Assembly: GCA_964194965.1 (NCBI GenBank)
Contig: CAXMQD010000251.1
Location: forward strand, 1 to 62,541
Length of the DNA: 62,541 nucleotides
Source of the DNA: an uncultured Acidimicrobiia bacterium
Lineage (GTDB): Bacteria > Pseudomonadota > Alphaproteobacteria > Kiloniellales > J153
Direction of reading: 5' to 3'
Part shown: positions 4,285 through 47,173 of the stretch, piece by piece
Layout of the letters: the number at the start of each line of letters is the position of its first letter
Position numbering within the stretch: the stretch's first letter is position 1
Position numbers and translations under genes: made by a program
Notes under the pieces: model-generated
The model's database searches: none
Seen by the model: the letters and a program-made list of their open reading frames with translations, nothing else
What the model was told of the DNA's origin: nothing

Positions 4285-4297
4285 TGTACCTCCCGTA

Positions 4298-4342: not shown

Positions 4343-4374
4343 ATGAGCGCCTTTGTTCTGGTATTTAGATTGTC

Positions 4375-6197: not shown

Positions 6198-6210
6198 AAG
6201 AGACCATGAA

Positions 6211-7743: not shown

Positions 7744-7745
7744 TC

Positions 7746-8741
7746 TTGGACGTTCGCACGCCAATTCTTGAACTGAAGGAACTCGAAACACATTTCGAAA
7801 CCCGCGATGGGATTGTGCGCGCAGTGGACAAAGTCAGTTACGCCGTCGGGGCCGGGGAGACCCTGGGCGTGGTCGGCGAGTCCGGATGTGGAAAAAGCGT
7901 TACGTCGCTTTCCATATTAAGACTGATCCCGACCCCGCCGGGCCGGATCGTCGGCGGTCAAGTCTGGTTCGAGGGCGAAGATCTGACCCAGGTTTCCGAA
8001 GACCGTATCCGCCAGGTGCGTGGCAACGACATCTCCATGATTTTCCAAGAGCCCATGACGTCCCTGAATCCCATGATGACGGTCGGCAGGCAAATCGCCG
8101 AGCCGTTGATCCGCCACCGGGGATTGTCGAAATCGGAAGCGGCCGGACGGGCCAAGGAAATGCTGCAATTGGTGCACATTCCCGATGCAGATCGCTGGCT
8201 CGATGGCTATCCACACGAAATGTCCGGCGGCATGCGGCAGCGGGTGATGATCGCCATGGCGCTGGCCTGTGATCCGAAAGTCCTGATTGCGGACGAACCG
8301 ACGACCGCCCTAGACGTCACCATTCAGGCGCAAATTCTGCTTTTGATACGGGAATTACAGGAGAAGCTCGGCACCGCCGTGGTCATGATTACTCACGATC
8401 TCGGCGTTATTGCGGAAACGGCGGACCGGGTCGTCGTCATGTACGCGGGCCGCAAGGTCGAGGAATCCGGTGTGGAAGACTTGTTCGCCAACCCACGCCA
8501 TCCCTATACGGTTGGATTGATGACCGCGGTCCCGCGGTTGGACAAAATTACATCAGGTATGGCGTACAACGAACGGTTGACTGAAATTCCCGGCGTTGTG
8601 CCGCCACTGCACGAATTGCCGGCGGGATGCGCCTTCGCCAGCCGCTGTTCATTCGCGACCGACCGTTGTCGCCAAGAAAAACCTGTATTCGAAGAGAAAT
8701 CTCCGGGCCATTGGGCCGCTTGTTTCGCGGAGATCGGTTGA
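7746..8741 (+). CDS. ABC transporter ATP-binding protein (DppD/OppD-like)
   Basis: 331 aa, TTG start. Walker A 'GESGCGKS', signature 'MSGGMRQR', Walker B '[11 protein letters not shown]', and a C-terminal oligopeptide-type Cys-rich tail. Confidence 0.9.
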
Positions 8742-9733
8742 TGGCCTTGGACTCGCAAAACCCGAAACCGCCGCTGTTGGAAGTCAACGACCTGAAGACC
8801 TATTTCCCGGTCCGAAAGGGCGTGCTGTCCACCATCCAAGGCTACGTTTACGCCGTCGACGGCGTCTCAATCACAGTGAACGATGGAGAAACGCTCGGGC
8901 TTGTGGGAGAAAGCGGTTCAGGGAAGTCGACGCTCGGAAAATCCGTGTTACGGATCGTCGAGCCGACCTCGGGAGAAATCAAGATTCGCGGTAAGAATAT
9001 CATCGGACTTTCCAAGTCGGAGATGTTCGCCTATCGCCGCGAAGTCCAAATGGTGTTTCAAGACCCCTACTCGTCGCTTAACCCACGCATTCCGGTCGGC
9101 AAAATCGTCGCCGAGGTCATGCGGGTGCATGGTATCGCCTCGGGTCGGGAGGCCCGTGAACGGGTCAATGACATCTTCGAGAAAGTTGGGCTCTGGCCGT
9201 CGCAAACACGAAACTACGCCAACGAATTTTCAGGCGGTCAGCGGCAACGGATCGGGATCGCCCGGGCCTTGGCGTTGAACCCCAGCTTGATCATCGCCGA
9301 TGAGCCTGTTTCCGCCCTCGACGTGTCCGTGCAGGCGCAGGTGATTAATCTGTTCATGGATTTGCAAGAAGAGTTTGGCATCTCTTATTTGTTTATCGCC
9401 CATGACCTCGCCGTCGTCGCGCAAATCTGTCATCGCATCGCGGTCATGTATCTGGGTCGCCTTGTTGAACTGGCGGACCGGGACACGCTGTTCAGAAACC
9501 CCCTGCACCCCTACACCCAGGCGCTATTGGCTTCGATCCCTATTCCCAATCCGAAAATAAAACCGACCACGGAGCGGCTCATTCAAGGGGACATCCCAAG
9601 CCCAAGCAATCCACCGAATGGGTGTCGTTTTCATACCAGGTGCCCGCTTGCCGAGCACCGTTGCCGCGTCGAAACGCCTGAGTTCAAGGAAATCGAAACC
9701 GGTCATTGGGCCGCCTGCCATCTGCAAAATTGA
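8741..9733 (+). CDS. ABC transporter ATP-binding protein (DppF/OppF-like)
   Basis: Track ORF is 8627..9733. I prefer the ATG at 8741, which overlaps the upstream TGA (ATGA coupling). Starts '[22 protein letters not shown]'. Contains 'GESGSGKS', 'FSGGQRQR' and 'IIADEPVSALD'. Confidence 0.9.
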   Translation: MALDSQNPKPPLLEVNDLKTYFPVRKGVLSTIQGYVYAVDGVSITVNDGETLGLVGESGSGKSTLGKSVLRIVEPTSGEIKIRGKNIIGLSKSEMFAYRREVQMVFQDPYSSLNPRIPVGKIVAEVMRVHGIASGREARERVNDIFEKVGLWPSQTRNYANEFSGGQRQRIGIARALALNPSLIIADEPVSALDVSVQAQVINLFMDLQEEFGISYLFIAHDLAVVAQICHRIAVMYLGRLVELADRDTLFRNPLHPYTQALLASIPIPNPKIKPTTERLIQGDIPSPSNPPNGCRFHTRCPLAEHRCRVETPEFKEIETGHWAACHLQN

Positions 9734-10233: not shown

Positions 10234-13122
10234 ATGATGGCGGAGAAAACGGCCGCCAGAGGGTCGGGTGCCGTCGATACGTCGCCCTCTCTGGGCGACG
10301 AGGTCAAGTACACCACCTGCTACATGTGCGCTTGCCGGTGCGGGATCAAGGTCTACCTGCAGGACGGCGGCGTCCGCTACATCCAGGGAAATCGCGACCA
10401 TCCGGTAAACAAGGGCGTCCTATGCGCCAAAGGCGCGGCCGGCATCATGCAATTGAATTCGCCGGCGCGGCTGACCAAGCCCTTGCGGCGTGTCGGCGAT
10501 AGGGGCAGCGGAGAATTCGAAGAGATCGAGTGGGATGAGGCCCTCGATATCGCCACCGCATGGCTGGCCCGGGCCCGGGCAACCGATCCGCACAGGCTCG
10601 CCTTTTTCACCGGCCGCGATCAAAGCCAGTCCCTGACGTCGTGGTGGGCGCAACAGTTCGGCACGCCCAACTACGCCGCACACGGTGGGTTCTGCTCGGT
10701 CAACATGGCCGCCGCCGGCCTCTACACCGTGGGCAGTGCCTTCTGGGAATTCAGCGAACCGGACTGGGAACACACCCGTTATTTCATGATGTTCGGCGTC
10801 GCCGAGGATCACGATTCCAATCCCATCAAGATCGGACTTGGCAAACTCAAAGGCAAGGGCGTCAAGTTCGTCTCCGTCAACCCGATTCGAACCGGCTACT
10901 CCGCCATCGCCGACGAATGGCTGGCCATCACGCCGGGGACCGATGGGCTGTTCGTCTTATCTCTGGTCCACGAATTGTTGCGGGCCGGCAAGGTAGATGT
11001 CGAATACCTGCGCCGCTACACCAACGCCGGCTGGTTGGTGATCCAGGATCCGGGTGGGGCCGAGGACGGTCGTTTCGCCCGTGACGAAGACGGCCGGGTT
11101 CTCTGCTGGGACCACCGCGAGGGCGCGATTGCCGACGCCTTGGCGGGTGACGCGGCGCCGAGTCTCAAGGGCTCGATCAGCCTTCCGGACGGACGAAGCG
11201 CCCGGCCATCGTTCCACATCCTGGCCGAGCGGTACCTCGACGCGCAATACAGTCCCGACGCGGTGGCATCGCGGGTCGGGTTGACCGCCGAGACCATTCG
11301 CCGCATCGCCGCCGAACTGGCGCACGCCGCCTTCGAGCAAGATGTTGTTATCGAGCAGCCGTGGACCGACTGGACCGGTCGGCGCCACGACCGCATGATC
11401 GGCCGCCCGGTCAGCATCCATGCCATGCGCGGCATATCCGCCCATTCCAACGGCTTTCACACTTGCCGCGCCATCCACTTGTTGCAGATTCTGCTCGGCA
11501 GCATCGACACCCCCGGGGGCATGCGTTTCAAACCGCCGTACCCCAAATCGCTCGCTTCGCTTCCCCAACCCTTCGGCCTCAAGGAGGACATCAAACCGAA
11601 CACGCCGCTGCGCGGCCCGCATCTGGGCTTCCCGAAGTCGCCTAAGGGGTTGCTCATCGACGCCGGTGGCAAGCCCCGGCGAATCGACAAAGCCTTCTCC
11701 TGGGAAGCCCCTCTAGCGGTTCACGGGATGATGCACATGGTCATCACCAACGCATGGAAGGGAGACCCCTATCCGATCGACACCCTGTTCATGTACATGT
11801 CCAACATGGCGTGGAATTCGGCCATGAACACCACCGACACCATGCGCATGCTGACCGACAAGGATGCGGCGACAGGCCAGTACAAAATCCCCCGGTTCAT
11901 TTATTCCGACGCCTTCTACTCCGAAACCGTTGCCTACGCCGATCTGGTGCTGCCCGACACCACGTACCTGGAGCGATTTGACTGCATCTCCTTGCTCGAC
12001 CGCCCGATCAGCGACGCCGACGGCGTCGCCGATGCGATTCGCCACCCCGTGGTCGAACCCGACCGCGACGTGCGTCCTTTTCAGTCCGTGTTGCTCGATC
12101 TGGGTGCGCGTCTGGGCCTTGCCGGCATGATCGATAAGGATGGCCAACCCAAGTACCCCGGCGGCTACCGCGATTACATTATCAATCATGAACGCCGCCC
12201 CGGCATCGGCCCCCTGGCGGGCTGGCGCGGCGCCGGCGGCGATGAGACCGCTCGGGGCGATCCCAATCCAGATCAGATCGACCGCTACATCGAGAACCAG
12301 TGCTTCTGGCGCCAGGAGCTGGCGCCCGAGAACAAGTACTTCCGCAACGTCAATCGCGACTATCTGGCCTATGCCGTCAAGATGGGCTTCGTGGTCGATA
12401 ACCAGCCGATCATTTGTCAGATCTACAGCGAGGAATTGCAGAGCTTCCGCCTCGCCGCCCAAGGGCACGGCCCCTTGCAGCCCCCGGCGGAGCACCGCGA
12501 CCGCATCGAAAAATACTTCGATCCCTTGCCCATCTGGTATCCGCCATTCGAAGACCAGTTGGCCGGCGATTACCCCTTGCACGCGGTCACTCAGCGGCCC
12601 ATGGCGATGTATCATTCTTGGGGCTCGCAGAACGCCTGGCTCCGGCAGATTCACGGCAGCAACCGCCTCTACGTGCCGTGTGCCGCCGCCGAGAAATTGG
12701 GGATCGGGGATGACGACTGGGTCTGGCTGATCAGCCGCAGCGGGCGCATCAAGGTTCAGGTCCAGCTAATGGAAGGGGTGAACCGCGACACGGTATGGAC
12801 CTGGAATGCCATCGGCAAGCGGGCCGGGGCGTGGAACCTGGACCCCGGGGCGCCCGAAGCCCGACAGGGGTTCTTGCTCAACCATCTGATCGACGAACTG
12901 CTGCCAGAGCGCGACGGGGGCCACCGCTATTCCAATTCCGATCCGGTGACCGGACAGGCGGCATGGTACGACCTGATGGTTCGCATGGAACCGGCCGAAG
13001 GGGCGGAGGCGACGGAGCCGACGGAGCCGCAGTTCCCGGTGCTTCCCTTGCCCGCGGGAATGACGGAACGGCCGCGGATCATAAGCTTCGGTGCCGAATT
13101 CCATAAACCACGGCGCACCTGA
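10234..13122 (+). CDS. soeA: Molybdopterin (bis-MGD) oxidoreductase catalytic subunit without Tat signal; SoeA-like (candidate sulfite dehydrogenase (quinone) subunit A)
   Basis: 962 aa. N-terminal FS0 motif C-x2-C-x3-C-x27-C in 'CYMCACRCGIKV...VLCAKG'. No RRxFLK twin-arginine motif before it. GAGG lies 6-7 nt upstream of the ATG. Followed by FeS and NrfD-like subunits. Confidence 0.75.
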   Translation: MMAEKTAARGSGAVDTSPSLGDEVKYTTCYMCACRCGIKVYLQDGGVRYIQGNRDHPVNKGVLCAKGAAGIMQLNSPARLTKPLRRVGDRGSGEFEEIEWDEALDIATAWLARARATDPHRLAFFTGRDQSQSLTSWWAQQFGTPNYAAHGGFCSVNMAAAGLYTVGSAFWEFSEPDWEHTRYFMMFGVAEDHDSNPIKIGLGKLKGKGVKFVSVNPIRTGYSAIADEWLAITPGTDGLFVLSLVHELLRAGKVDVEYLRRYTNAGWLVIQDPGGAEDGRFARDEDGRVLCWDHREGAIADALAGDAAPSLKGSISLPDGRSARPSFHILAERYLDAQYSPDAVASRVGLTAETIRRIAAELAHAAFEQDVVIEQPWTDWTGRRHDRMIGRPVSIHAMRGISAHSNGFHTCRAIHLLQILLGSIDTPGGMRFKPPYPKSLASLPQPFGLKEDIKPNTPLRGPHLGFPKSPKGLLIDAGGKPRRIDKAFSWEAPLAVHGMMHMVITNAWKGDPYPIDTLFMYMSNMAWNSAMNTTDTMRMLTDKDAATGQYKIPRFIYSDAFYSETVAYADLVLPDTTYLERFDCISLLDRPISDADGVADAIRHPVVEPDRDVRPFQSVLLDLGARLGLAGMIDKDGQPKYPGGYRDYIINHERRPGIGPLAGWRGAGGDETARGDPNPDQIDRYIENQCFWRQELAPENKYFRNVNRDYLAYAVKMGFVVDNQPIICQIYSEELQSFRLAAQGHGPLQPPAEHRDRIEKYFDPLPIWYPPFEDQLAGDYPLHAVTQRPMAMYHSWGSQNAWLRQIHGSNRLYVPCAAAEKLGIGDDDWVWLISRSGRIKVQVQLMEGVNRDTVWTWNAIGKRAGAWNLDPGAPEARQGFLLNHLIDELLPERDGGHRYSNSDPVTGQAAWYDLMVRMEPAEGAEATEPTEPQFPVLPLPAGMTERPRIISFGAEFHKPRRT

Positions 13123-13123
13123 C

Positions 13124-13840
13124 ATGACCAGTCTGCCAAAGACACCGCCGCCCAAACGCCTCGGCCTGGTCATCGACCTGGACACCTGCGTCGGTTGCCA
13201 TGCCTGCGCCGTCGCGTGCAAGGAATGGAACACCGGCGGCTACCACGCCCCTCTGACCGACCGGAACCCCTACCAGGCCGGGGCCGACGGCGTTTGGTTG
13301 AACCGCATTCACAGCTTCGAGGTCGGCGACGCGCGGACCGTCAACTTCCCCAAGTCCTGTCTCCATTGCGAGGACGCGGCCTGCGTCACCGTCTGCCCCA
13401 CGGGGGCCTCCTACAAACGGGAGGAGGATGGCATCGTTCTCGTCGATGAAGACCTGTGCATCGGATGCAAACTGTGTTCCTGGGCCTGTCCCTACGGCGC
13501 CCGCGAGTTCGACACCGACCAAGGCGTGATGAAGAAATGTACGCTCTGCATCGATCGTATCTATAACCAGAACCTGGAAGAGATCGAACGGCAGCCGGCC
13601 TGCGTGATCACCTGCCCGGTCAACGCCCGCCACTTCGGCGATCTCGCCGATCCCGGATCCGAGGTCTCGAAGCTGGTCGAGGAAAGGGGCGGCTACGACC
13701 TGATGGCGGAGATGGGATACAAGCCGACCAACAAGTATCTGCCCCCCCGGAAGCCCGTAAAGGCGCCCCAGGCGACCATGGCCGAGCCCGCGCCCGATCA
13801 GCCGTTTCTAAGCTGGCTCGACTCCGTCCTGTCGCCTTAG
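13124..13840 (+). CDS. soeB: 4x[4Fe-4S] ferredoxin-type electron-transfer subunit; SoeB-like
   Basis: Track ORF is 13091..13840 (GTG). The ATG at 13124 lies 1 nt after the soeA stop. Cys clusters are 'CVGCHACAVACKEWN', 'CLHCEDAACVTVCP', 'CIGCKLCSWACPYGA' and 'CTLCIDR...ACVITCP'. The start is uncertain by 11 codons. Confidence 0.8.
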   Translation: MTSLPKTPPPKRLGLVIDLDTCVGCHACAVACKEWNTGGYHAPLTDRNPYQAGADGVWLNRIHSFEVGDARTVNFPKSCLHCEDAACVTVCPTGASYKREEDGIVLVDEDLCIGCKLCSWACPYGAREFDTDQGVMKKCTLCIDRIYNQNLEEIERQPACVITCPVNARHFGDLADPGSEVSKLVEERGGYDLMAEMGYKPTNKYLPPRKPVKAPQATMAEPAPDQPFLSWLDSVLSP

Positions 13841-13858
13841 CACGACCGCGTCGCCGTC

Positions 13859-14800
13859 ATGCATCCAGGGTTTTCCGTCATCCTATTTACCGCCACGACC
13901 GGGGCGGGCTACGGCATGTTGGTCCTGCTCGGGTTGCTTGGGTTCGCCGGACTGGTGCCGGCGGATTTCTGGTTCGGCTTGACCGCCTTCGGGGTTGCCC
14001 TCGGGGCCATCACCGTCGGCTTGTTGTCGTCCACGTTCCACCTCGGCCATCCCGAAAGGGCTTGGCGGGCGTTCAGTCAATGGCGTTCGTCCTGGTTGTC
14101 CCGGGAAGGGGTTTTGGCCGTGGTCACCTATGGGCCGGCCGGCTTGTTCGCCCTGAGCTGGGTTTTCCTGGCCGACAACGGAAACCTCCTAGGCCCGGTG
14201 ACGGCTGTTCTTGCGGCCGTCACCGTCTTCTGCACGGCCATGATATATCGCTCCCTCACCACCATCCACCAGTGGTGCAACGCCTGGGTGGTTCCCAATT
14301 ACCTGGCCTTGGGACTGATGACCGGGGCGGTTTGGTTGAACCTGCTGTTGGCCGCCTTCGGCCTGGCGAATTCGAAATTCGCCCTGTTTACGGCCGCCGT
14401 CGTGGCGGTGGCGGCGGCCCTGAAACTTGCCTATTGGAATTTCATCGATACCACGGCCCACCCAAGCACGCCGGAAAGCGCCACCGGCCTCGGCGGCCTG
14501 GGCAAGGTGCGTCTGTTCGCGGGGCCGCACACGGAAGAGAACTTCCTGATGAAGGAAATGGGCTACAGGATCGCCCGCAAGCACAGCCGAAAGCTGCGCC
14601 GGATCGCCATCACGGCCGCGTTCGCGGTCCCTCTGGGCCTGACCCTGATCGCGGCGCTGATTCCGCCGGGCCTCCTCCCGGTCGCCTGCGCGGGGCTCGC
14701 CGCCACCTCCGCCAGTATCGGCGTCCTAATCGAACGCTGGCTGTTCTTTGCCGAGGCCAAACACGTGGTCACCTTGTTTTACGGCGGCGAACGCGCTTAA
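13859..14800 (+). CDS. soeC: NrfD/DmsC-like polytopic membrane anchor subunit; SoeC-like
   Basis: 313 aa, about 8 hydrophobic segments, and follows the FeS subunit after 18 nt. The 14062..14886 ORF in another frame is Arg/Gly/Pro-rich and rejected. Confidence 0.75.
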   Translation: MHPGFSVILFTATTGAGYGMLVLLGLLGFAGLVPADFWFGLTAFGVALGAITVGLLSSTFHLGHPERAWRAFSQWRSSWLSREGVLAVVTYGPAGLFALSWVFLADNGNLLGPVTAVLAAVTVFCTAMIYRSLTTIHQWCNAWVVPNYLALGLMTGAVWLNLLLAAFGLANSKFALFTAAVVAVAAALKLAYWNFIDTTAHPSTPESATGLGGLGKVRLFAGPHTEENFLMKEMGYRIARKHSRKLRRIAITAAFAVPLGLTLIAALIPPGLLPVACAGLAATSASIGVLIERWLFFAEAKHVVTLFYGGERA

Positions 14801-15021
14801 GTCCTAGAGACGGACATCTCCTCCCCCGCTTTCGAAGGATGCCGATGCGGGATTTAGGGCCAGCGCTGGCCTGGCGAATTCCCTGATTTGAAGGATATTT
14901 TAGGAACCCTTGGATAGACTAGGTGCGGCATGACCTAAGAAATTTACACTTCAAAAATTGTTTTTTTTGGGGACCCGCTAGATCATGATCGATCTCTCGT
15001 CCCAGCCAAAAGGGGAATTAG

Positions 15022-16047
15022 GTGTCCGATACCAAATTAGCTGAGCGGCTCGAGATTTTTTCGACCTGTCCGCAGTCCAAGGATGTGGGCCGCGACGCCT
15101 ATATCCAGCGGGTGGTGGATGTGTCGCAGTGGAGTGAATCCTTGGGCTGCACAGGGATTTTGGTCTATACCGACAACGGGATTGCCGACCCTTGGCTGGT
15201 TTCGCAAATCATCATCCAGAATACCCAGCGCTTGGCCCCCCTCTTGGCAATTCAGCCCATCTATATGTCGCCCTACACCGCGGCCAAAATGGTCTCGACG
15301 CTGGCCTTGCTGCATGGGCGGCGGGTCTATCTCAACATGCTGGCCGGGGGCTTCAAAAATGACCTGGCCACGCTCAACGATATGACGCCACATGATGATC
15401 GCTATGTGCGGACCATCGAATATACGTTGATTATCAAACGTCTCCTGGAAAGCGGGCAGCCGGTAAGTTTCAAGGGAAAGTACTACACGATTAAGAACTT
15501 GAAAATGACGCCGGAGCTGCCGCCCGAATTGTTCCCCGGAATTATGATCTCGGGCTCGTCGGACGCGGGCATGGCGGCGGCGCGGGCCATCGGGGCCACG
15601 GCGGTGAGGTATCCCAAGCCGCCCGGCGAAGAACTTGGCGTCGCGCCAGATTTATCCGTCCGCTGTGGGGTCAGGATCGGCATCATCGCGCGCCAGGACC
15701 GCGACGAAGCTTGGCGTGTCGCGCGCGAGCGTTTCCCCGACGCCCGCCGGGGCCAGATCGCGCACGGTCTCGCCATGAAATCGAGCGATTCGGTGTGGCA
15801 CAAGCAGTTGTCTCAATTGGAGGTCGAGACGGCGGAAGAGGACAACCCCTATTGGCTGGGCCCGTTCCAAAATTACAAGACCTTCTGTCCCTACCTGGTC
15901 GGGACCTACGAGCGGGTCGCTCGGGAGGTCGGCGATTATATTGCCAAGGGCTACCGGACCTTCATCCTGGACATTCCCCCGTCCTATGAAGAACTCGAGC
16001 ATACGGGCAAGGTTTTCAAGAGAGCCTTGGAACTCGAGGTCGCATGA
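15022..16047 (+). CDS. Luciferase-like (LLM class) flavin-dependent monooxygenase, SsuD/MsuD-related by eye
   Basis: 341 aa, GTG start with AAGGGGA upstream. 'GCTGILVYTDNGIADPWLVSQIIIQNTQRLAPLLAIQP...TAAKMVSTLALLHGRRVYLNMLAGG' parallels the SsuD TIM-barrel core. The stop overlaps the next gene's start. Confidence 0.8.
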   Translation: MSDTKLAERLEIFSTCPQSKDVGRDAYIQRVVDVSQWSESLGCTGILVYTDNGIADPWLVSQIIIQNTQRLAPLLAIQPIYMSPYTAAKMVSTLALLHGRRVYLNMLAGGFKNDLATLNDMTPHDDRYVRTIEYTLIIKRLLESGQPVSFKGKYYTIKNLKMTPELPPELFPGIMISGSSDAGMAAARAIGATAVRYPKPPGEELGVAPDLSVRCGVRIGIIARQDRDEAWRVARERFPDARRGQIAHGLAMKSSDSVWHKQLSQLEVETAEEDNPYWLGPFQNYKTFCPYLVGTYERVAREVGDYIAKGYRTFILDIPPSYEELEHTGKVFKRALELEVA

Positions 16048-17723
16048 CCCGGCTGTTGCAGGACTGGGCAACGCGCCAGGTTGAACGACGGCCAGATGCG
16101 ACCGCGGTGGTCATGCGGGGCCGACGCTTGAGTTACAGCGAGGTCGAGCAAGCGAGCAATCGCCTGGCGCGCATGCTCCATAACGTCGGTTGCACCAAAG
16201 GCGACCGGGTCTGCCTTCTAGCTCCCAAATCTCCCGACGCCATCGTGGCCATCCACGCCATCCTCAAGGCCGGTTGCCTAGTTGTGCCGATGGACGCGCA
16301 GAGCCCGGCGCCTAGGTTGGCGAAGATCATCGAAGCCTGCGGTCCACGCCTTATATTGGCGAGCGCGGCGACGATCGCTCGGCTCGGGGAGCTGCGGTCG
16401 ATCTCCGATCGTGCGCGATGCGCACGGATCGGCTATCTGGAGGTCGGCATCCCAGATTGCGCCGGAATCGAGGTCGCTTTTCGGCCCGAAGATGTCGCGG
16501 GCGAGTCCCCCGAGCCGGAAGATCGCGGCTCCGACGGCGCGGACCCTGCTTACCTTCTTTTTACCTCGGGCTCCACGGGCACGCCCAAGGGTGTGGTCGT
16601 CACCCACGCGAACGTGGTTGGCTTCGTCGATTGGGCAGGTGACTATTTCGACCTCGGGCCATCGGATCGGATCTCGCAACATCCGCCGCTTCATTTCGAT
16701 TTGTCGATCTTCGACATCTTCGGCGCGTCCGCGGCCGGGGCGGAGCTGCACCTAGTGCCGCCGGAGATGAACCTGCGGCCCGACAGGCTGACCGAGTTTA
16801 TTCGCGATAGTGCGCTCACCCAGTGGTTCTCGGTGCCTTCCGTGCTCGGATATCTCGCCAAATTCGACGTGGTCGGCCAGGGCGATTTTCCGTTGCTCAA
16901 GCGCTTGCTTTGGTGCGGCGAAGTCCTGTCGACCCCGACCCTGGTTCACTTCATGCGGCGCTTGCCCCACGTGCAGTTCACTAATCTCTACGGGCCGACC
17001 GAGGCGACCATCGCGAGCAGCTATTACACCGTGCCGAGCTGCCCCGAGGACCCGGCCGCGGCGATTCCCATCGGCCGGCCGTGCGGCGGCGAGGATCTCC
17101 TCGTCTTGGACGGCAATCTCGATCCGGTCGGCCCAGGGGTCGCCGGCGATCTCTATATCCGCGGCATCGGTCTCAGTCCCGGTTACTGGGAGGATCGCAA
17201 TCTGACTCGAGCCGCCTTCCTCGACGGCCCCCCGGTCCGGTCCCGCCACGCCCGGATTTACAAGACCGGCGACTTGGCACGGATTGGAGAAAACGGGCTG
17301 ATCTATTTTCTCGGCCGAGCGGATTCCCAGATCAAAAGCCGAGGCTATCGAATCGAGCTGGGCGAGATCGAGGCGGCTTTGGAGACCGTCGGTCAACTGT
17401 CGGCCGTTGCGGTCATCGCCATTGACGCCGGCGGCTTCGAGGGCGCGACGATCTGTTGTGCCTATGAGCCCCAGAACGGTGCCGAGGTTTCAGCGAGAAG
17501 CCTGCGTGCTGCGCTCGGCACAAAGTTGCCGAGTTACATGATTCCGACACGGTGGTTGACGTTCGACACCTTGCCGAAGACCGCCAATGGCAAAGTCGAC
17601 CGCCAGCGCCTGCGAGAGGAAGCGAAAGGTTGGCCGCTGGGCCGGACCGCGGCAGCGGCGGCGCCGGGTCCTCGGGCGGGGAAGGGGGCGCTCGCCAGTT
17701 CAGGGGCCGATGAAGGCGTATGA
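16044..17723 (+). CDS. Stand-alone amino-acid adenylation enzyme (DltA / NRPS A-domain-like)
   Basis: 559 aa. Motifs: A3 'LLFTSGSTGTPKGVVVTH', A4 'HFDLSIFDIF' (Asp that binds the alpha-amino group), A5 'NLYGPTEAT', A7 'YKTGDLAR', A8 'GRADSQIKSRGYRIELGEIE', A10 'LPKTANGKVDR'. No C, T or TE domain is fused. Confidence 0.9.
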   Translation: MTRLLQDWATRQVERRPDATAVVMRGRRLSYSEVEQASNRLARMLHNVGCTKGDRVCLLAPKSPDAIVAIHAILKAGCLVVPMDAQSPAPRLAKIIEACGPRLILASAATIARLGELRSISDRARCARIGYLEVGIPDCAGIEVAFRPEDVAGESPEPEDRGSDGADPAYLLFTSGSTGTPKGVVVTHANVVGFVDWAGDYFDLGPSDRISQHPPLHFDLSIFDIFGASAAGAELHLVPPEMNLRPDRLTEFIRDSALTQWFSVPSVLGYLAKFDVVGQGDFPLLKRLLWCGEVLSTPTLVHFMRRLPHVQFTNLYGPTEATIASSYYTVPSCPEDPAAAIPIGRPCGGEDLLVLDGNLDPVGPGVAGDLYIRGIGLSPGYWEDRNLTRAAFLDGPPVRSRHARIYKTGDLARIGENGLIYFLGRADSQIKSRGYRIELGEIEAALETVGQLSAVAVIAIDAGGFEGATICCAYEPQNGAEVSARSLRAALGTKLPSYMIPTRWLTFDTLPKTANGKVDRQRLREEAKGWPLGRTAAAAAPGPRAGKGALASSGADEGV

Positions 17724-18646
17724 GAATCTTGCTTGTCGCCGAAGAGTCGGCCGGAATGCGGTGTCTCAAGGAGTTGGTCAAGGCCGAACATCAGATTGTC
17801 GGTGTCGTGGCCTCGCCGGATCGCGGTACCGCCAAGGCTCCGAGCGTCTGGCGCACGGCCCAGGCCATGGGGCTGCGGCGCTGGCCCGTCGAAAACGTCA
17901 GGCGAGATACGTTTACACCTACGATGGCGGCGGAAGACCTCGACGTTATTCTCAACGTTCATTCGCTCTACGTGATCCACGAATCGGTTTTGGCGTGCGC
18001 CCGGCTGGGCGCCTTCAACCTGCATCCTGGGCCGCTGCCGCGCTATGCCGGGCTCAATGCGCCGAGCTGGGCGATTTACAACGGCGAGAAAACCCATAGT
18101 GTCACGCTGCACAAGATGGCGGCCGGGATCGATACCGGGGCGATCGTGTTCGAGACTCCCTTCGACATCGCCGAGGAGGACACGGGCCTCACGGTCATGA
18201 CCAAGTGCATTAAACTGGGGATCCCGCTCATCGGACGCTTGCTGGAGACACTTGATAGGGATCCGACCTCGCTGCCGCTAGCACCCCAGGACCTGTCGCA
18301 CCGGCGTTATTTTGGGCGCGAGGTGCCGCGGAACGGGCGCCTATGTTGGGCGCGGCCGGCCGAGCGGATCATTCGTTTTGTCCGAGCTTCCGACTACTAT
18401 CCCTTTGCCTCGCCTTGGGGCCACCCGACAGCGCGACTGAACGGCCGCGACATCGGCATCGTGAAGGCCGGACTTACGGGGCGAGCGGCCGAAGGGCCGC
18501 CGGGGACCGTTACCTCGAGCGATCCCGACGGCGTGACGATCGCGTGCGTGGATGAAGCCATTTCGGTTCGTGCGATCCGCCTCGAGGCCGAGGTGGTGGC
18601 GGCAGCCGAGGTGTTCCAGGTCGGCCAGCGGCTGCACGATGGCTGA
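17720..18646 (+). CDS. Formyltransferase (Fmt / ArnA-N-terminal-like, N10-formyl-THF dependent)
   Basis: 308 aa, ATGA overlap with the adenylase gene. 'FNLHPGPLPRYAG' carries the catalytic Asn and His, and 'GIDTGAIV' the Asp. A C-terminal Fmt-like domain is present. Confidence 0.85.
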   Translation: MRILLVAEESAGMRCLKELVKAEHQIVGVVASPDRGTAKAPSVWRTAQAMGLRRWPVENVRRDTFTPTMAAEDLDVILNVHSLYVIHESVLACARLGAFNLHPGPLPRYAGLNAPSWAIYNGEKTHSVTLHKMAAGIDTGAIVFETPFDIAEEDTGLTVMTKCIKLGIPLIGRLLETLDRDPTSLPLAPQDLSHRRYFGREVPRNGRLCWARPAERIIRFVRASDYYPFASPWGHPTARLNGRDIGIVKAGLTGRAAEGPPGTVTSSDPDGVTIACVDEAISVRAIRLEAEVVAAAEVFQVGQRLHDG

Positions 18647-18664
18647 ATCGAATCGCAATAATTT

Positions 18665-18934
18665 TTGGGACACTGTACGATCTTGACCGACGAACAGAAC
18701 TTGAAAAGGCTGGAAGCGATCTTTTCCGAGCAATTGAATATCGCGGTGCCCGCGCGCGACACGGACTTGATCGGTGAAGGCTATCTCGACTCGGTGATGT
18801 TCGTGGATCTTCTTTTGGTTTTGGAGCAAGAGTTCGGAATCACTATTCCACTCGAGCAGTTGGAATTCGACAACTTCCAAACCATCAACAAGATCGCGGA
18901 CTTTGTCGAAAGTCAGGCCGTGGGCCTGGAATGA
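18665..18934 (+). CDS. Acyl/aminoacyl carrier protein (DltC-like)
   Basis: 89 aa (TTG at 18665; alternative TTG at 18683). Phosphopantetheine-site motif 'GEGYLDSVMFVDLLLVLEQEFGI' closely parallels DltC 'EEGLLDSFGTVELLLAIENRF'. Confidence 0.8.
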   Translation: MGHCTILTDEQNLKRLEAIFSEQLNIAVPARDTDLIGEGYLDSVMFVDLLLVLEQEFGITIPLEQLEFDNFQTINKIADFVESQAVGLE

Positions 18935-18991
18935 TCGTGACTCTTCGAGCTTGCACGGCACTGGTCCGGCCCCGGTCTGGAATCTGACTCC

Positions 18992-20041
18992 ATGTCAATC
19001 GAATACACCAATCTGAGCCTGGAGCGCCTCGACGATGTCAAGGGCCTGATGCTGCCGATATGGGAAAGACGATGGGGCGAGGACTTCGCGCGGGCGTTCT
19101 TTCGCTGGCGGTTCTTCGAGCGCCCCCTCTGGGACGCGGCTCTTGCGTATGATGGAACCTGCCTTGTAGCCTTCCTCGATTCCTTTATCCGTCGGTGTCG
19201 TGTCGGCACGCAGATCATTCCCATCCGCCAGACCGCCGATTGGTTTTGTCACCCCGATTACCGGCCGGTCGTCGGCATCAAGATCATGCGGATGATGATG
19301 GACAAGCCCGAGCCCATGCTGGTCGTGGGCGGCAACAAGAACACGCAGAACGTCTTGCCGCGTCTGCGTTGGCACTCGCTACCGGACGTGCCGCGATTCG
19401 TTCTTCCGACCGGGTCCGGCGTCATGTTCAAAGGCCTCTCGCGTCTACTCCGAATCCCAACGTCGGCATTTCCGTCGGCACTGGGGCGACTGCCTTCCTT
19501 CCGCGTGTTCGGCGGTCGCCGAGGGGCGGCTCCGAACGGAACCGGCTCGGTCTTCCGTCTTCGCGACTCGGAGTCGCTGCCCGAGATCGCCCCGCCCCCC
19601 GACAGCTGTGCCCTCGGCGCGGTCCTCGACCGGGAGGAGGTTGATTGGCTGAACAAGGCTCCCGATGCCATGGGCGACTTCGTCTGGCTGGTTTTTTCGA
19701 TCGACGGGTCGCCCATGGGGTTGTCGCTGAGCAGGGTTTACGAAGAAAAGCCCTTCCGCACGGCCAAGCTGCTGCATTTGCAGGCAACCGACCCTTCGGC
19801 CGCCGCCTACGACTGGATGATCAAAGAGACGGCGGCCTTCCTCGCCGAGTGTGGGGCACAGTGGATCACCGCGCAGTTCGGGGACCCGTTAGTTCTCCAG
19901 GCCCTCGAGAAGACAGGGTACAGGAAAAAGCGGGACGACCAGAAGGCGTTCTGGTGGAATCACGGACAGAAACCGCCCAACGGACCCTATCATCTGACTT
20001 GGGTGTGCGGAGATGAAAGCGTGATGCCCTTTCCGGATTGA
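18992..20041 (+). CDS. Hypothetical protein with two GNAT-like halves (candidate acyl/aminoacyl transferase)
   Basis: 349 aa. By eye both halves have the GNAT pattern: 'ALAYDGTCLVAFLDSF...TADWFCHPDYRPVVGIKIM', and 'WLVFSIDGSPMGLSLSR...AAFLAECGAQWITAQ...LEKTGYRK'. The family assignment is not verified. Confidence 0.55.
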   Translation: MSIEYTNLSLERLDDVKGLMLPIWERRWGEDFARAFFRWRFFERPLWDAALAYDGTCLVAFLDSFIRRCRVGTQIIPIRQTADWFCHPDYRPVVGIKIMRMMMDKPEPMLVVGGNKNTQNVLPRLRWHSLPDVPRFVLPTGSGVMFKGLSRLLRIPTSAFPSALGRLPSFRVFGGRRGAAPNGTGSVFRLRDSESLPEIAPPPDSCALGAVLDREEVDWLNKAPDAMGDFVWLVFSIDGSPMGLSLSRVYEEKPFRTAKLLHLQATDPSAAAYDWMIKETAAFLAECGAQWITAQFGDPLVLQALEKTGYRKKRDDQKAFWWNHGQKPPNGPYHLTWVCGDESVMPFPD

Positions 20042-20282
20042 GCGCCGCGCGCCAGATCCCGAGGCGCCCGCCAAAACGATTTGAGTTCCGAGCGCTTCCC
20101 GGCCGTCGTGCATGGCACGATCACCCTTCTCCTTCATGGAATCTGCCGTGAGGAGCGGATCGCGCCTGGAGAGTCGCAAACAAGCGAGCAATGCCGGGAA
20201 GCTTACGCCGAAAATCTTGGTAAGTCGTCTCTATGAGTCAATACTAAGAACCTTGGGTATGAGGACACGGGGAGGATCATCG

Positions 20283-21566
20283 ATGGACCTGACGAAGCTG
20301 GGTGCGCGCGAGGCCGCGGCCCTGATCGTCGAGGGACGACTCACCGCGGTGGGTCTGACGGAAGCGTGTCTGGAGCGCATCGCCGCGCGCGACGGGGAGG
20401 TCCGCGCCTGGGCGCATCTCGACCCCGAGGCCGCGCTCGCGCAGGCGCGCGCCTGCGACGCTCGCGCGCCCGTTGGGCCGCTCCACGGCGTGCCCGTAGG
20501 CATAAAGGACATCATGGACACCGCCGATATGCCGACCGAGTACGGCTCGCCGATCTACCGCGATCATCGGCCCGCGACGGATGCGATTTGCGTCGCCAAG
20601 GTCCGCGCCGCGGGCGGGGTGGTTCTGGGCAAGACCGTGTCGACCGAATTCGCCCACCGTCAACCCAACATCCAAACGCGCAACTCCCACGATCCCGCCC
20701 GGACTCCCGGCGGCTCGTCGAGTGGATCGGCCGCCGCGGTCGCCGACTTCATGGTGCCGCTCGCCTTCGGCACCCAGACCGGCGGCTCGATCATTCGTCC
20801 GGCATCGTTCTGCGGCGTCTACGGCTACAAGCCGACCTATGACACTATTGCGACCGCCGGGGTCAAGCCGCTCGCCCCCGGGCTCGACACCGTCGGCACT
20901 TTCGCGCGCAACCTGGATGACATTGCCTGGTTCGGGGCGGCGCTGTCGAACGACGAGCCAAGCGATATTCCGGTGTGGTCGGGTGCCGCGCCGCGGGTGG
21001 GCTTGACCCGCGGCTACGAATGGTCCCAGGCCGAGGCGGCGACGGTCGAGGCCGTCGAAACTGCCGCCGCCCGTCTCGAGGAAGCGGGCGCAGAGGTCAC
21101 GGAGGTTGTTCTGCCCAACGCCTTCGCGGAGCTCGCCGACGCGCAAATAACGATCATGCGCGTCGAGGCGACTCAGGCCCTGGCCTGGGAGCGCGCCAAC
21201 CACTCGGATCGGCTGAGCGCGCCCCTGCGCGGCTTGTTGGACCGGGGCGCGGGAATCTCCGTTGAGGTTCACGACAGCGCCGTGACGCTCGCCCGGAAGT
21301 GCCGCGCGCGCCTAGCCGAGGCGTTCGCCGGTAACGACGTGTTACTCACCGCCAGCGCTCGCGGCGAAGCCCCGGTCGGGCTCGAGTCGACCGGCGATCC
21401 GGTTTTCAATCGCAACTGGACCCTGCTCCATGTCCCCTGCGTGACGATTCCCTTCGGCCGAGGACCGAACGGCATGCCGGTCGGTGTGCAGCTCGTGGCT
21501 CGGCCGGGCGCGCACCAACGTCTGCTCGGCGCGGCAAAGTGGATCGCCACCCGGCTCGGTGTATGA
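20283..21566 (+). CDS. Amidase-signature family amidase (GatA-like)
   Basis: Track ORF is 20112..21566. I prefer the ATG at 20283 with GGGGAGGA upstream, giving 'MDLTKLGAREAAALIVEG'. 'GIKDIMDT' carries the Lys, and 'GGSSSGSAAAVA' is the AS signature. Confidence 0.85.
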   Translation: MDLTKLGAREAAALIVEGRLTAVGLTEACLERIAARDGEVRAWAHLDPEAALAQARACDARAPVGPLHGVPVGIKDIMDTADMPTEYGSPIYRDHRPATDAICVAKVRAAGGVVLGKTVSTEFAHRQPNIQTRNSHDPARTPGGSSSGSAAAVADFMVPLAFGTQTGGSIIRPASFCGVYGYKPTYDTIATAGVKPLAPGLDTVGTFARNLDDIAWFGAALSNDEPSDIPVWSGAAPRVGLTRGYEWSQAEAATVEAVETAAARLEEAGAEVTEVVLPNAFAELADAQITIMRVEATQALAWERANHSDRLSAPLRGLLDRGAGISVEVHDSAVTLARKCRARLAEAFAGNDVLLTASARGEAPVGLESTGDPVFNRNWTLLHVPCVTIPFGRGPNGMPVGVQLVARPGAHQRLLGAAKWIATRLGV

Positions 21567-25148: not shown

Positions 25149-26246
25149 TCACACCACCCTTTCGGCGGTGGGGTCGAAGATGTGCATATTGTTCATGTTG
25201 ATGGTGAACGCCATGGTTTCGCCCACCGCGCTGACCGCCTTGGGCGCGGAACGGGCGCTGATCTCTATGCCGCCAAGTTCGATGATGACCATGGTGTCCA
25301 TGCCCATGGGCTCCAACACGTGGACCTCGGCCTCCAAGTCCAACTGGTTTTCGACCGTATGAACCTTGCGTTCGGTCAGGTGCTCCGGACGGATACCGAA
25401 TATCATATCCCTGCCGACGAAGGGACGGTAGCGGTCCTGATACCCGGTTGGGACCGGGAAGATCAGATCGTCGCCGATTCGCACGCCGACGCTCGAGCCA
25501 TTGGACTCCAGCCTGCAGGGCACGAAGTTCATGGCCGGCGAGCCGATGAAGCCGGCAACGAAGAAGGTGGCGGGCTCGTCGTACATTTGTTGGGGCGTGC
25601 CGACTTGCTCGATGATGCCGTCGTTCATGACCACGATGCGGTCCGCCAGGGTCATGGCTTCCACTTGGTCATGGGTGACGTAAACCACGGTCGTGCGCAC
25701 CCGGCGATGGATCTTCTTGATCTCGGTGCGCATTTGCACCCTGAGCTTGGCATCCAGGTTGCTCAAGGGTTCGTCGAACAGGAACACCTGGGGGTCGCGC
25801 ACGATGGCCCGGCCCATGGCGACCCGCTGACGTTGGCCACCGGAAAGCTGCTTCGGCTGCCGGTCGAGCAGCTCCGAGATGTTCAGAATCTCCGCGGCGT
25901 TGCGCACCCGCTGCTCGATCTCGTTCTTGGGTGTCCGGCGCAGCTTGAGCCCGAACGACATGTTATCGTACACGGTCATGTGAGGATAGAGGGCGTAGTT
26001 CTGGAACACCATGGCGATGTCCCGATCCTTGGGCGGCACGTCGTTGATCAGCCGCTCGCCGATGATAATCTCGCCGGAGGTAATCTCCTCCAGGCCGGCG
26101 ATCATGCGCAGTGTCGTGGACTTACCACAGCCCGATGGTCCAACCAGGACCACGAACTCGTTGTGGGCGATGTCCAGATCGATGCTCCGCACCGCCGGCT
26201 TATCGCCGTAAATTTTCTCCAGATCTTTTAGAATGATGCGGGCCAT
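25149..26246 (-). CDS. Sugar ABC transporter ATP-binding protein (MalK/UgpC-like, CUT1)
   Basis: Track ORF is 25149..26477. I prefer the ATG at 26246, giving '[44 protein letters not shown]'. Contains '[14 protein letters not shown]' and '[11 protein letters not shown]', plus a C-terminal MalK-type regulatory domain. Confidence 0.9.
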
Positions 26247-26311
26247 CGGGTCTCTTCCCTCGGTTCTACGCCTCGGTTTTCCGGACGTCTTGCCGGCGTT
26301 GCCATATACCG

Positions 26312-27763
26312 TCACACATAGATCGGTGCCTCGCCTGGCGCCGGCGTGTAGCCGGGCGAGCCTTGGGCGACGATGGCCTCTTGACCGCCGCCCGAGGCGA
26401 TGCGCAGGGCCTGATCCGCCTTGGCCTTCCGGTCGATCTCGTCCGGATCCAAAAGCGCGCGCAATGCCGATTCGCACGACGCCAACACCGCGCCATGGCT
26501 GGGGTCGCCGGCCAGATCGTTGAGCTCCTTCGGGTCGCTTTCCAGGTCGAACAGCTGGGCCGGGTAGTCCACGTGATGGACATATTTGTGGCGGCCCTTG
26601 CGAATCATGAAGCTCGCCGATTTGGCGCCCGCGCTATGCTGCTGGGACAAGATGACCCGGTCCGGCGTGGCGCCGTCGGCGAGCGCGAAGAGCGACGATC
26701 CGGGCAGGTCCCGATCTTCGTCGGTGGGCGCGACGCCGGTCGCCTCCAGGACGGTCGGAAAGATGTCCAATAGTTGGACCGGCGTCTCCACAACTCGGCC
26801 CGGCGGCAAGTCGGGGCCGGCCATGATCATGGGCACGCCTACTGACTCTTCGGTCATGTTGCACTTGCTGAACAAGCCCTTCTCGCCCATGGATTCGCCA
26901 TGGTCCGAGGAATAGATGATCCGCGTGTTTTCGGTCAGGCCGTTACGCTCGAGCGCCGTCATCAATTGACCGATGTTGTCGTCCAGATAGCTGATCATGC
27001 CCAGATAGGCGGCGGTCACCCGGCGCGCCGTGGCCTCGTCGAAGGGCTCCTCGATGCCGAAGAACCGGCGGAAGTCCTTGTAGGCGGGATGTTCCGGCCG
27101 CTGGTTCGGCCAATAAGCCTCGGGCCAGGGGATTTGGTCGTGCGGATAGAGGTCGTAGAACCGCTTGGGCGCGAGCCAGGGCGGGTGTGGACAGACCAGG
27201 GAGACGAAGGTGGCCCAGGGTTTATCGTTATGCTTGCCGGCTTCGTTGTCCAGCCAGTCGACCGCGCGGGCGGTGATCTGCCGGTCATATTCGGTGTAAG
27301 TCGATTCGCCGCCACCGGATTCGTTTACCAGCATCCTGAACTTGCGGGAGACCGGCATGGGATCGCGGATGATGGTGAACAGCATGCCCACCCCGCCGAT
27401 CACGTGGAGCGGCACAATCTCCTCGTCGAAGCCGTTGGGGTCCTCGGTGTCCCGATAGTGCAGCTTGCCGATGGAGGTGGCTCGATGGCCCTGGTCCATG
27501 AGCCGATGGCCCCAGGAGGGGGTCGTCCCGTGATAGGGCCGCGCGTTGTCCCAGATCTCGATCTCGTGCACGTGGCGCCCGGTCGCCAGACTGGCGCGCG
27601 AGGGAACGCAGATCGGGCCGTTGCAGTAGGCGTTTCGGAACAGCGTGCCTCTAGCCGCCAGGCGATCCAGGTTCGGGGTCAGGGCCACCGGATGACCGGC
27701 GCAGCCCATCGCCCGGCGGGTGTGCTGGTCGGAGAGAATAAACAGCATGTTCATAGGTTTCAT
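26312..27763 (-). CDS. Cys-type sulfatase, cytoplasmic, paralog group B
   Basis: Track ORF is 26312..27982. I prefer the ATG at 27763, giving '[25 protein letters not shown]'. Contains '[22 protein letters not shown]' and '[13 protein letters not shown]'. The C-terminal tail '[13 protein letters not shown]...[13 protein letters not shown]' is shared with four neighbours. Confidence 0.9.
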
Positions 27764-28007
27764 GGTGCGGACAGCCCCAAAAAAAAGATCTTGCCGAGCA
27801 GAGTCCTCCCGACCTCCTCGATCCCAGACCGTGGCAAGGGCACCATAAACCGGAGACCAGCGCAAGCTCGGAGCGCCACGAATCGGTCTTCGACCTTTCC
27901 CATGGGTGCCCACATGCGCTAGACAGGTAGGCGAAGGATCGAAGATCGTGTTATCCTGATGACGCGAACAATATCGGTCCAAAAATTACCGAGAGGGAGG
28001 ATTCACG

Positions 28008-29435: not shown

Positions 29436-29443
29436 GCCGAAAA

Positions 29444-29470
29444 CGCGGGAGGCCATTGCGGCCTCCCGCG
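29444..29470 (+). terminator. Intercistronic GC-rich stem-loop after the SBP gene (attenuator or mRNA-stability element)
   Basis: 11-bp perfect stem cgcgggaggcc / ggcctcccgcg with a 5-nt loop, 8 nt after the stop at 29435. The tail tgctcttc is T-poor, so it is not a canonical terminator. Confidence 0.4.
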
Positions 29471-29511
29471 TGCTCTTCATGTCGCCGCTCTCGGAGGAGG
29501 GGATCGAACCC

Positions 29512-31286: not shown

Positions 31287-31296
31287 CGCGGCGGGA

Positions 31297-47170: not shown

Positions 47171-47173
47171 TCC

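Follow-up and report, generated by a model that had tools for sequence, protein, structure and literature searches.

A five-gene operon joining a stand-alone DltA-like adenylase, a formyltransferase and a carrier protein to a tandem-GNAT protein, and its possible role in carrier-dependent aminoacylation

The closest described systems in which a free adenylase charges a carrier protein with an amino acid for the bacterial envelope are DltABCD and AlmEFG, the latter ending in AlmG, a lipid A acyltransferase-type membrane enzyme that is not a GCN5-related N-acetyltransferase (GNAT). Formylation of a carrier-bound amino acid is known from the formylation-adenylation-peptidyl carrier (F-A-PCP) module of the non-ribosomal peptide synthetase (NRPS) LgrA, and N-acylation of a sugar amine from a carrier protein is known from Nod factor synthesis, where NodE and NodF synthesise a fatty acid as the acyl group and NodA does not belong by sequence to the GNAT family. 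To our knowledge, the enzymes that attach N-acetyl- or N-formyl-amino acids to the amino sugars of O-antigens and capsules are largely unassigned. Amino sugars so acylated occur in the O-antigens and capsules of many bacteria (PMC3210612). Here we analyse a stretch of 62,541 nucleotides (contig CAXMQD010000251.1 of assembly GCA_964194965.1, hereafter the window), which encodes a luciferase-like monooxygenase (LLM), a DltA-like adenylase, a formyltransferase, a carrier protein and a protein made of two GNAT-like halves. What is established below is which genes are present, which domains they encode, that the last of the five proteins has a tandem-GNAT fold, and that the genes are conserved together in other genomes. 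From them we propose a carrier-protein-dependent aminoacylation operon that would work without tRNA and without an NRPS condensation domain, in a four-step scheme whose acceptor is likely a glycan amine, a proposal to which we give an even chance of being right.

The region 15022-20041 is a genuine operon of five co-directional genes on the plus strand. These code, in order, for an LLM flavin-dependent oxygenase of 341 aa (15022..16047; Pfam Bac_luciferase, E 5e-31), a stand-alone NRPS-type amino-acid adenylase (A) of 559 aa (16044..17723; AMP-binding and AMP-binding_C), a 10-formyltetrahydrofolate (10-formyl-THF) formyltransferase of the Fmt/ArnA type (Fmt) of 308 aa (17720..18646; Formyl_trans_N and Formyl_trans_C), a free-standing acyl carrier protein (ACP) of 89 aa, or 83 aa if its start is TTG 18683 (18665..18934; PP-binding, E 4e-12), and a tandem-GNAT transferase of 349 aa belonging to an unclassified family (18992..20041). 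An Amidase-signature hydrolase gene follows on the same strand (20283..21566, within an open reading frame (ORF) of 20112-21566; Pfam Amidase, E 1e-77), a neighbour that is probably outside the cassette. A preliminary description, made from the sequence alone, had placed six plus-strand ORFs here, and all of them are present at its coordinates; the ATGA overlaps that it reported between LLM and adenylase (16044-16047) and between adenylase and formyltransferase (17720-17723) can be read in the sequence, and the translations contain the motifs HFDLS, GYLDSVMF, FNLHPG and GIDTGAI, the last two holding the Asn/His/Asp catalytic residues of the formyltransferase. Upstream, an AT-rich intergenic stretch of 221 nt (14801..15021, plus strand) separates the operon from a set of molybdenum (Mo) oxidoreductase genes, with a terminator-like hairpin at 14755-14770 near the end of the last of these. 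The LLM start is preceded by an AAGGGG ribosome-binding site, and no sigma-70 consensus was found ahead of the operon in 14801-15021.

Profile hidden Markov models (HMMs) run on each ORF gave a Pfam name to five of the six proteins and left the 349-aa protein unmatched. As the preliminary description had stated, the adenylase is not fused to C, T or TE domains (none in the Pfam/NCBIfam scan), and a Pfam scan of 52 ORFs, enough to cover the predicted genes of the window, found no DltB (MBOAT), DltD, Condensation or thioesterase domain. That description had also not recognised the gene combination as a characterised pathway; our literature searches found no publication describing it, and we found no curated Pfam or NCBIfam family covering it.

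The adenylase scores above the cut-off of the NCBIfam amino-acid adenylation domain model TIGR01733 (378.5 against 317.4 bits) and is not a DltA equivalog (275.6 against 559.85 bits for TIGR01734 and 289 against 476 bits for PRK04813). Its nearest solved structures are the LgrA A domains, with AlmE (PDB 4oxi) at 167 bits. Its Stachelhaus code, read by alignment to GrsA-PheA, is DLFFLCLIAK, where Asp235 and Lys517 are present and the other pocket positions are hydrophobic; in the same procedure the GrsA sequence gave the canonical DAWTIAAICK at the expected positions. Asp235 and Lys517 indicate an alpha-amino acid as substrate, so that the code extraction put forward as a check in the preliminary description returned an alpha-amino-acid type. 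The identical code occurs in the cassettes of L004, L025 and L026 (L numbers denote the loci compared), with adenylases 55-64% identical, and close variants are found in L003, L006 and L020 (DLFLTCLVAK) and in L013, L016 and L024 (DLHFLCLIAK). The code of Bacillus subtilis DltA is DLMTMCTVAK, read from a sequence near-identical to PDB 3e7w (four differences, all outside the pocket); it has six positions in common with the window adenylase, namely Asp235, Leu236, Cys301, Ile/Val330, Ala331 and Lys517. Structural work on DltA is said to have found that Cys301 governs selectivity for D-Ala. The bulky hydrophobic lining together with this DltA-type cysteine suggests a substrate with a small side chain, alanine or glycine. 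The best NCBIfam match of the carrier is DltC, below cut-off (41.3 against 68 bits for PRK05087 and 34.7 against 52.35 for TIGR01688), and the Asp-Ser pair of its phosphopantetheine site is invariant in eight orthologues.

The 349-aa protein has no match in Pfam or NCBIfam. Its AlphaFold2 model (pLDDT 89.3, pTM 0.89, built on 16 sequences) was compared with the PDB by Foldseek, and N-myristoyltransferases and Eis-like tandem GNATs came first (E ~1e-11, TM 0.5-0.58, over 340-400 columns). According to this model the protein is two GNAT folds in one chain, and the two GNAT-like halves proposed from the letters are thus borne out by structure prediction where profile HMMs showed nothing. From its N-terminus (MSIEYTNLS) and the compact two-lobe model, which spans the whole chain, it is taken to be cytoplasmic. 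Close relatives are rare, with 16 clusters among 5.8 billion proteins, none of them named and none with a Pfam domain. A search with a tandem-GNAT profile recovers a larger family of 465 representatives at E<=1e-3 (109 at E<=1e-30), some distant members of which match Acetyltransf_1 or Acetyltransf_9 in their N-terminal half. In one member, P0085 (L019, 6565-13062), the tandem-GNAT domain is the C-terminal part (residues 1838-2161) of a polyketide synthase (PKS) module KS-AT-DH-KR-ACP, directly after the ACP, and may represent a new kind of chain-release domain; the neighbours of P0085 include an extra ACP, an AMP-ligase, a short-chain dehydrogenase/reductase and a MacB-type exporter. In another member, P0090, a Polysacc_deac_1 domain is fused to the tandem-GNAT domain. 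The constant adjacency to ACP genes and the fusion to the PKS ACP point to an acyl-S-carrier as donor, and the tandem GNAT is presumed to be the enzyme that offloads it.

The formyltransferase scores above cut-off for both of its Pfam domains and misses the Fmt, ArnA and PRK06988 equivalog cut-offs. In the PDB it matches ArnA (97 bits) and Fmt (83 bits), then GDP-perosamine and dTDP-Qui3N N-formyltransferases, and it also matches the hydrolase domain of 10-formyl-THF dehydrogenase (E ~5e-16); the LgrA F domain is not among its PDB matches at E<=1e-5. Orthologues that are 50-61% identical occur in L001, L025 and L026. In a group of sister cassettes its slot is taken by a GNAT of the Acetyltransf_3 family, and this swap, the position between A and ACP and the overlapping codons lead us to favour a formyltransferase that caps the amino group of a substrate held by the carrier.

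The nearest characterised relative of the LLM is SsuD (PDB 1m41 at 107 bits). It scores 116.7-117 bits (E 1e-34) against SsuD NCBIfam models with cut-offs of 510-518.2 and is therefore not an equivalog, and the SsuD residues Cys54, His228 and Arg297 are replaced by Ile, Gly and Tyr, with Arg226 retained. It is 50-73% identical across all close cassettes and belongs to a subfamily of 5391 proteins at E<=1e-40, many of them 65-71% identical, which far outnumbers the close tandem-GNAT family. Three LLM homologues chosen for their long contigs were looked up, and all three adjoin adenylase and carrier genes. This constant pairing, as well as a flavin-reductase fusion directly upstream of the LLM in L026 (8440-9906, a sugar-1-phosphate nucleotidylyltransferase fused to an HpaC-like flavin reductase), makes a two-component oxygenase working inside this pathway the best reading of the enzyme. 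Homologues 43-48% identical to it are also found in plasmid-borne clusters of Tritonibacter mobilis (L014, NZ_CP015232.1) and Rhizobium (L015, CP041206.1). Both clusters contain AMP-binding genes, a cytochrome P450 and a phosphopantetheinyl transferase (PPTase), joined by acyl-CoA dehydrogenase and efflux genes in Tritonibacter and by a carrier gene in Rhizobium, and look like uncharacterised small-molecule pathways.

The genes are conserved as a block elsewhere. Four arrangements occur among the close relatives, with the capping position held by a formyltransferase in some and by a small GNAT in others. The first (type I) is that of the window and of L007, a 100% identical metagenome contig, with the order LLM-A-Fmt-ACP-tandem GNAT followed by the amidase. 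The second (type II; L001/L002/L010, L017/L018 and L021) has LLM-Fmt-ACP-tandem GNAT with no adenylase, flanked by a hemerythrin gene and FdhD. In the third (type III; L003, L020 and L006, a Gemmatimonadota metagenome-assembled genome (MAG)), LLM-A-GNAT(Acetyltransf_3)-ACP is divergent from the tandem GNAT, and in L003 and L020 an ATP-grasp gene comes next. In the fourth (type IV; L004/L005), a small GNAT is divergent from LLM-A-ACP-tandem GNAT, with ATP-grasp and Polysacc_deac_1 genes nearby. In several lineages the LLM and A genes overlap at their stop and start codons, as do the genes for the capping enzyme and ACP. The ATP-grasp protein (~390 aa, a weak ATPgrasp_Ter match, 45-69% identical among L003 11405-12583, L020 5030-6214 and L004 3516-4703) goes with the GNAT-capped cassettes and is absent from those capped by Fmt, the window included.

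Further from the window, a gene for a 400-aa protein comes after LLM-A-Fmt-ACP in L025, the order in L026 is LLM-A-ACP, a 372-aa protein and Fmt, and that in L023/L024 is A-ACP-LLM. The 400-aa and 372-aa proteins have no Pfam match, and both align with the tandem-GNAT profile over ~290 columns (hhalign probability 82% and 95%, respectively). Since these fifth genes match the profile, the window cassette falls within a broad family of the form LLM-A-(Fmt or GNAT)-ACP-tandem GNAT. Nothing was found by megablast with the cassette or by tblastn with the tandem GNAT against plasmids, and a scan of GTDB species representatives for close-family patterns found a single locus, in the Gemmatimonadota MAG; the organism of the window is not among the representatives. 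A word-indexed search using a profile of 46 sequences contributed at least one further protein.

The cassettes without adenylase (L001 7649-11044, L017 7633-11044, L021 3244-6670) are not decaying remnants, a possibility ruled out by purifying selection on all four of their genes (ratio of nonsynonymous to synonymous substitution rates, dN/dS, 0.07-0.29 at dS 0.4-0.7). Hemerythrin and molybdate-transport-like genes flank them at one end. The opposite flank has FdhD, MobA-like and NarJ-like genes in L001, only FdhD in L017, and in L021 a partial gene that tblastn matches to FdhD. An Mo-enzyme operon likewise precedes the cassette of the window, which may be either a coincidence or a functional link.

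The amidase gene does not share in this conservation. Its likely start is ATG 20283, which has a GGAGG ribosome-binding site (NCBIfam alignments begin near residue 57), giving a gap of ~241 nt, in agreement with the 242 nt first reported. It lies beside the cassette only in L007 (100%) and L008 (95%) and is absent from the diverged cassettes of L001, L003, L004, L006, L020, L025 and L026. Because it is conserved only in relatives that are 95-100% identical, the unit comprises five genes and not the six originally proposed. In L008 (SMVA01068628.1, 8358-9340) the similarity to the window begins abruptly inside Fmt, at about window position 18334, where an IS1595-family transposase abuts the breakpoint; the contig lacks the LLM, the adenylase and two-thirds of Fmt at its 5' end, and the tandem-GNAT and amidase genes carry frame-breaking indels, possibly sequencing errors. 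This breakpoint indicates that the cassette is accessory and can be lost.

The preliminary description had left the acceptor open between a small molecule and an envelope component; judging by the related loci, its likely class is an amino sugar of a polysaccharide. Glycan loci are the setting of many diverged cassettes, and a deacetylase gene is adjacent in L004 and L026. Around the L026 cassette are Bac_transf, DegT aminotransferase, Polysacc_deac_1, GT2, Wzx and Wzy genes; around that of L004 are Wzz, Poly_export, Polysacc_synt, sulfotransferase and deacetylase genes; and GT2, Polysacc_synt and methyltransferase genes surround those of L003 and L006. In L024 the neighbours are a carbamoyltransferase and a UDP-sugar dehydrogenase/WecG fusion, and L016, where the family member is 22% identical, contains NeuB and YfhO genes and a pair of A and ACP of its own. 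The tetronate genes wbeK-O of V. cholerae O1, which may bring together an ACP, an AMP-ligase and a protein resembling LLM, offer a lead only. Within that set, tetronate formation requires wbeL, for which a putative ATP-binding domain is described (PMC3441752). N-acetyl-D/L-alanyl and N-acetylglycyl amino sugars have been described in polysaccharides of marine Gram-negative bacteria (PMC3210612), so that the class of product that we propose exists in nature.

Putting these elements together, the DltA-like adenylase would first activate an alpha-amino acid that is small or hydrophobic, with D- or L-alanine or glycine the likeliest candidates, and thioesterify it onto the 89-aa carrier. The formyltransferase would then add a formyl group from 10-formyl-THF to the alpha-amino group of the carrier-bound residue, a step at which the small GNAT of the sister cassettes would cap with acetyl instead. 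The LLM, always present, would act as a two-component oxygenase dependent on reduced flavin mononucleotide (FMNH2) and oxygenate either the tethered residue or the acceptor. Finally, the tandem GNAT would take the completed acyl group off its phosphopantetheine thioester and transfer it to a nucleophile of the acceptor. This nucleophile is most probably the free amine of an amino sugar, or of a sugar that has been de-N-acetylated, in a glycan precursor linked to a nucleotide or a lipid, and the products would be N-(N-formyl-aminoacyl) amino sugars. Of the stand-alone thiotemplate system imagined in the preliminary description, the dissociated cassette built on an amino-acid-type adenylase has held up; its N-formyl-aminoacyl-S-carrier intermediate is best kept conditional, given the lineage that has no adenylase. 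More tentatively, and on a view that we think rather doubtful, the cassette may be one member of a widespread and uncharacterised machinery in which the tandem-GNAT family moves N-capped, possibly oxygenated aminoacyl groups from carrier protein to amino sugars, where the carrier would replace tRNA or coenzyme A (CoA).

Several observations weigh against the aminoacylation scheme. L001, L017 and L021 keep the other four genes with no adenylase, so that not every cassette can have an aminoacyl group loaded by a neighbouring enzyme of this kind. The formyltransferase, whose relationship to ArnA and Fmt is closer than that to NRPS F domains, could instead act on a sugar amine or on a thiol. The plasmid clusters in which more distant LLM homologues sit resemble small-molecule pathways. 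Pfam scans of the window ORFs found no glycan-synthesis gene within the 62 kb, and the truncation by an IS1595 element in a 95% identical relative indicates that the cassette is dispensable.

The first alternative, possible but on the whole improbable, is that the cassette makes a diffusible small molecule, such as an amide or dipeptide with an N-formyl aminoacyl group or a hydroxamate (N-hydroxy-N-formyl) derivative of an amino acid, with the tandem GNAT substituting for a condensation domain and coupling the acyl group on the carrier to a small amine. It agrees with the absence of glycan genes from the window and fits the Tritonibacter and Rhizobium clusters, where LLM homologues keep company with AMP-binding, PP-binding, P450, PPTase and acyl-CoA dehydrogenase genes, as well as the family member that ends a PKS module. 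By analogy, an invariant oxygenase combined with a formyl- or acetyltransferase also resembles hydroxamate biosynthesis, in which a hydroxylase is followed by capping of the PvdF/CchA or IucB type, and the LLM might be an N- or C-hydroxylase acting before capping. We know of no N-hydroxylase in the LLM family, however, and the hydrophobic pocket of the adenylase is unfit for Orn or Lys, the usual hydroxamate precursors. Moreover, the operon contains no exporter, PPTase or regulator, many diverged cassettes lie inside polysaccharide loci, and family members are fused or adjacent to polysaccharide deacetylases, all of which speaks against a small-molecule product.

It is unlikely that the formyltransferase is a sugar N-formyltransferase of the ArnA/WbkC/VioF type, acting independently of the carrier on a nucleotide-linked amino sugar and merely sharing the operon. 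Its best solved relatives, the ArnA, Fmt, GDP-perosamine and dTDP-Qui3N enzymes listed above, would agree with such a role, as would the DegT aminotransferases in glycan loci that hold related cassettes and the position of Fmt in L026, 3' of the tandem-GNAT gene rather than between A and ACP. However, the gene overlaps codons with A in the window and with ACP in L025 and type II; the Acetyltransf_3 GNAT that substitutes in the same slot is of a protein or alpha-amine type; and type II retains Fmt together with ACP and tandem GNAT with no sugar genes around.

We also consider it improbable that the formyltransferase formylates a thiol, either on the phosphopantetheine arm of the carrier or on CoA, to give a formyl-S-carrier whose formyl group the tandem GNAT passes on. 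Such a function would make sense of the three diverged contig lineages in which LLM-Fmt-ACP-tandem GNAT is maintained by selection with no adenylase. It also recalls 10-formyl-THF dehydrogenase, which uses an internal phosphopantetheine arm and whose hydrolase domain the formyltransferase matches. There is moreover a precedent for formylation of a pantetheine thiol by an Fmt-like enzyme, LctF, which transfers formyl from 10-formyl-THF to the thiol of CoA, formyl-ACP being formed next (PMC11730586). Yet an adenylase with a strictly conserved pocket, coupled to the carrier in the window, L025 and L026, would be pointless for formyl transfer; the capping slot is held in sister cassettes by an Acetyltransf_3 N-acetyltransferase; and the A-less contigs are partial, so that an adenylase may be present elsewhere in those genomes.

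Lastly, a desulfonating SsuD-type LLM that feeds sulfite to an adjacent SoeABC, with the adenylase beside it by accident, as the preliminary description had suggested for an alternative, would fit the relationship to SsuD, the sulfatase-rich neighbourhood and the Mo-oxidoreductase directly upstream, but is largely refuted and in our opinion scarcely credible, since the LLM falls far below the SsuD cut-offs with three SsuD residues replaced, its stop codon overlaps the adenylase start and 221 nt part it from the upstream operon, it lies beside A and ACP genes in every related locus examined (beside Fmt and ACP in type II) and never with SoeABC, and the SoeABC label itself is putative.

The genes so labelled (10234-14800) code for a three-subunit oxidoreductase with a molybdenum bis-pyranopterin guanine dinucleotide (Mo-bisPGD) subunit, a 4Fe-4S subunit and a DmsC-like subunit, whose best NCBIfam match is PhsA at 213 bits against a cut-off of 694. 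The other neighbours of the operon in the window are six sulfatases, ABC transporters, and enolase-superfamily and other sugar-acid enzymes. The Sulfatase-family genes (1068-2549, 6148-7743, 26312-27982, 31297-32793, 32885-34342 and 35882-37336) are interleaved, in two blocks at 1068-9733 and 25149-37336, with Opp-type and sugar ABC transporters, two MR/MLE enolase-superfamily genes, an aldo-keto reductase and an IlvD/Edd-type dehydratase. This sulfatase-rich catabolic island suggests the use of sulfated carbohydrates. Three further ORFs have a coding-like GC content at third codon positions and no Pfam match at E<=1e-4, at 43693-45909 (minus strand, 738 aa), 40625-41536 (plus, 303 aa) and 46395-47279 (plus, 294 aa).

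The cassette offers a testable candidate set composed of a DltA-like adenylase, a carrier, an interchangeable formyl or acetyl capping enzyme and a family of transferases for which neither Pfam nor NCBIfam has a model. If the wider reading, a machinery that moves capped aminoacyl groups from carrier to amino sugars, is true, its formyltransferase would be the first free-standing one to act on an aminoacyl-S-carrier, an SsuD-like LLM would gain a new role, and the enzymes now missing for the N-acyl-alanyl and N-acyl-glycyl amino sugars of many bacterial polysaccharides would be at hand. The cassette would also provide an annotation for thousands of genes now called 'alkanesulfonate monooxygenase' or 'hypothetical protein'.

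Among known systems, the cassette is like DltABCD, where a free adenylase loads a small amino acid on a free carrier of ~80-90 aa for transfer to an envelope polymer; the six common pocket positions and the DltC match of the carrier reinforce this resemblance. In contrast to Dlt, the cassette misses the DltA and DltC cut-offs, has no DltB (MBOAT) or DltD, would rely on a cytoplasmic tandem GNAT for transfer, adds an LLM and a formyltransferase, and is found in a high-GC host with Gram-negative-type neighbour genes. AlmEFG shows that a DltA-like adenylase (AlmE) and a carrier (AlmF) can serve a Gram-negative envelope glycolipid, adding glycine to the lipid A of Vibrio cholerae, yet it has neither formyltransferase nor LLM; in turn, Pfam scans, which included no AlmG-specific model, found no acyltransferase in or near our operon other than the tandem GNAT. 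With LgrA the cassette would have in common the N-formylation of an aminoacyl-S-carrier by an Fmt-like enzyme using 10-formyl-THF. Here, however, F, A and PCP are three separate ORFs with no condensation domain after them, and the formyltransferase has a full Fmt/ArnA-like C-terminal domain and shows no match to the LgrA F domain at E<=1e-5.

The resemblance to NodB/NodA/NodF is functional only: a deacetylase frees a sugar amine, which is then N-acylated from an acyl-S-carrier, and the link to NodB lies in the tandem-GNAT family members that are fused or adjacent to Polysacc_deac_1. As for the transferase, FemX/FemABX, the synthase domain of MprF and N-myristoyltransferase (NMT) likewise use a fold of two GNAT lobes to move an activated acyl or aminoacyl group to an amine or hydroxyl. 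Their donors are tRNA or CoA derivatives, unlike the aminoacyl-S-carrier that we propose, and the window protein has no detectable sequence similarity to their Pfam families; FemX and MprF are not in the best 50 Foldseek matches listed. Given the cut-offs missed, the absence of DltB, DltD and AlmG-type proteins, the lack of an F-A-PCP fusion and a tandem GNAT outside any curated family, the cassette is a member of none of these systems, and its function as proposed here would extend the carrier-mediated envelope aminoacylation of the Dlt and Alm type to a cytoplasmic, GNAT-based route.

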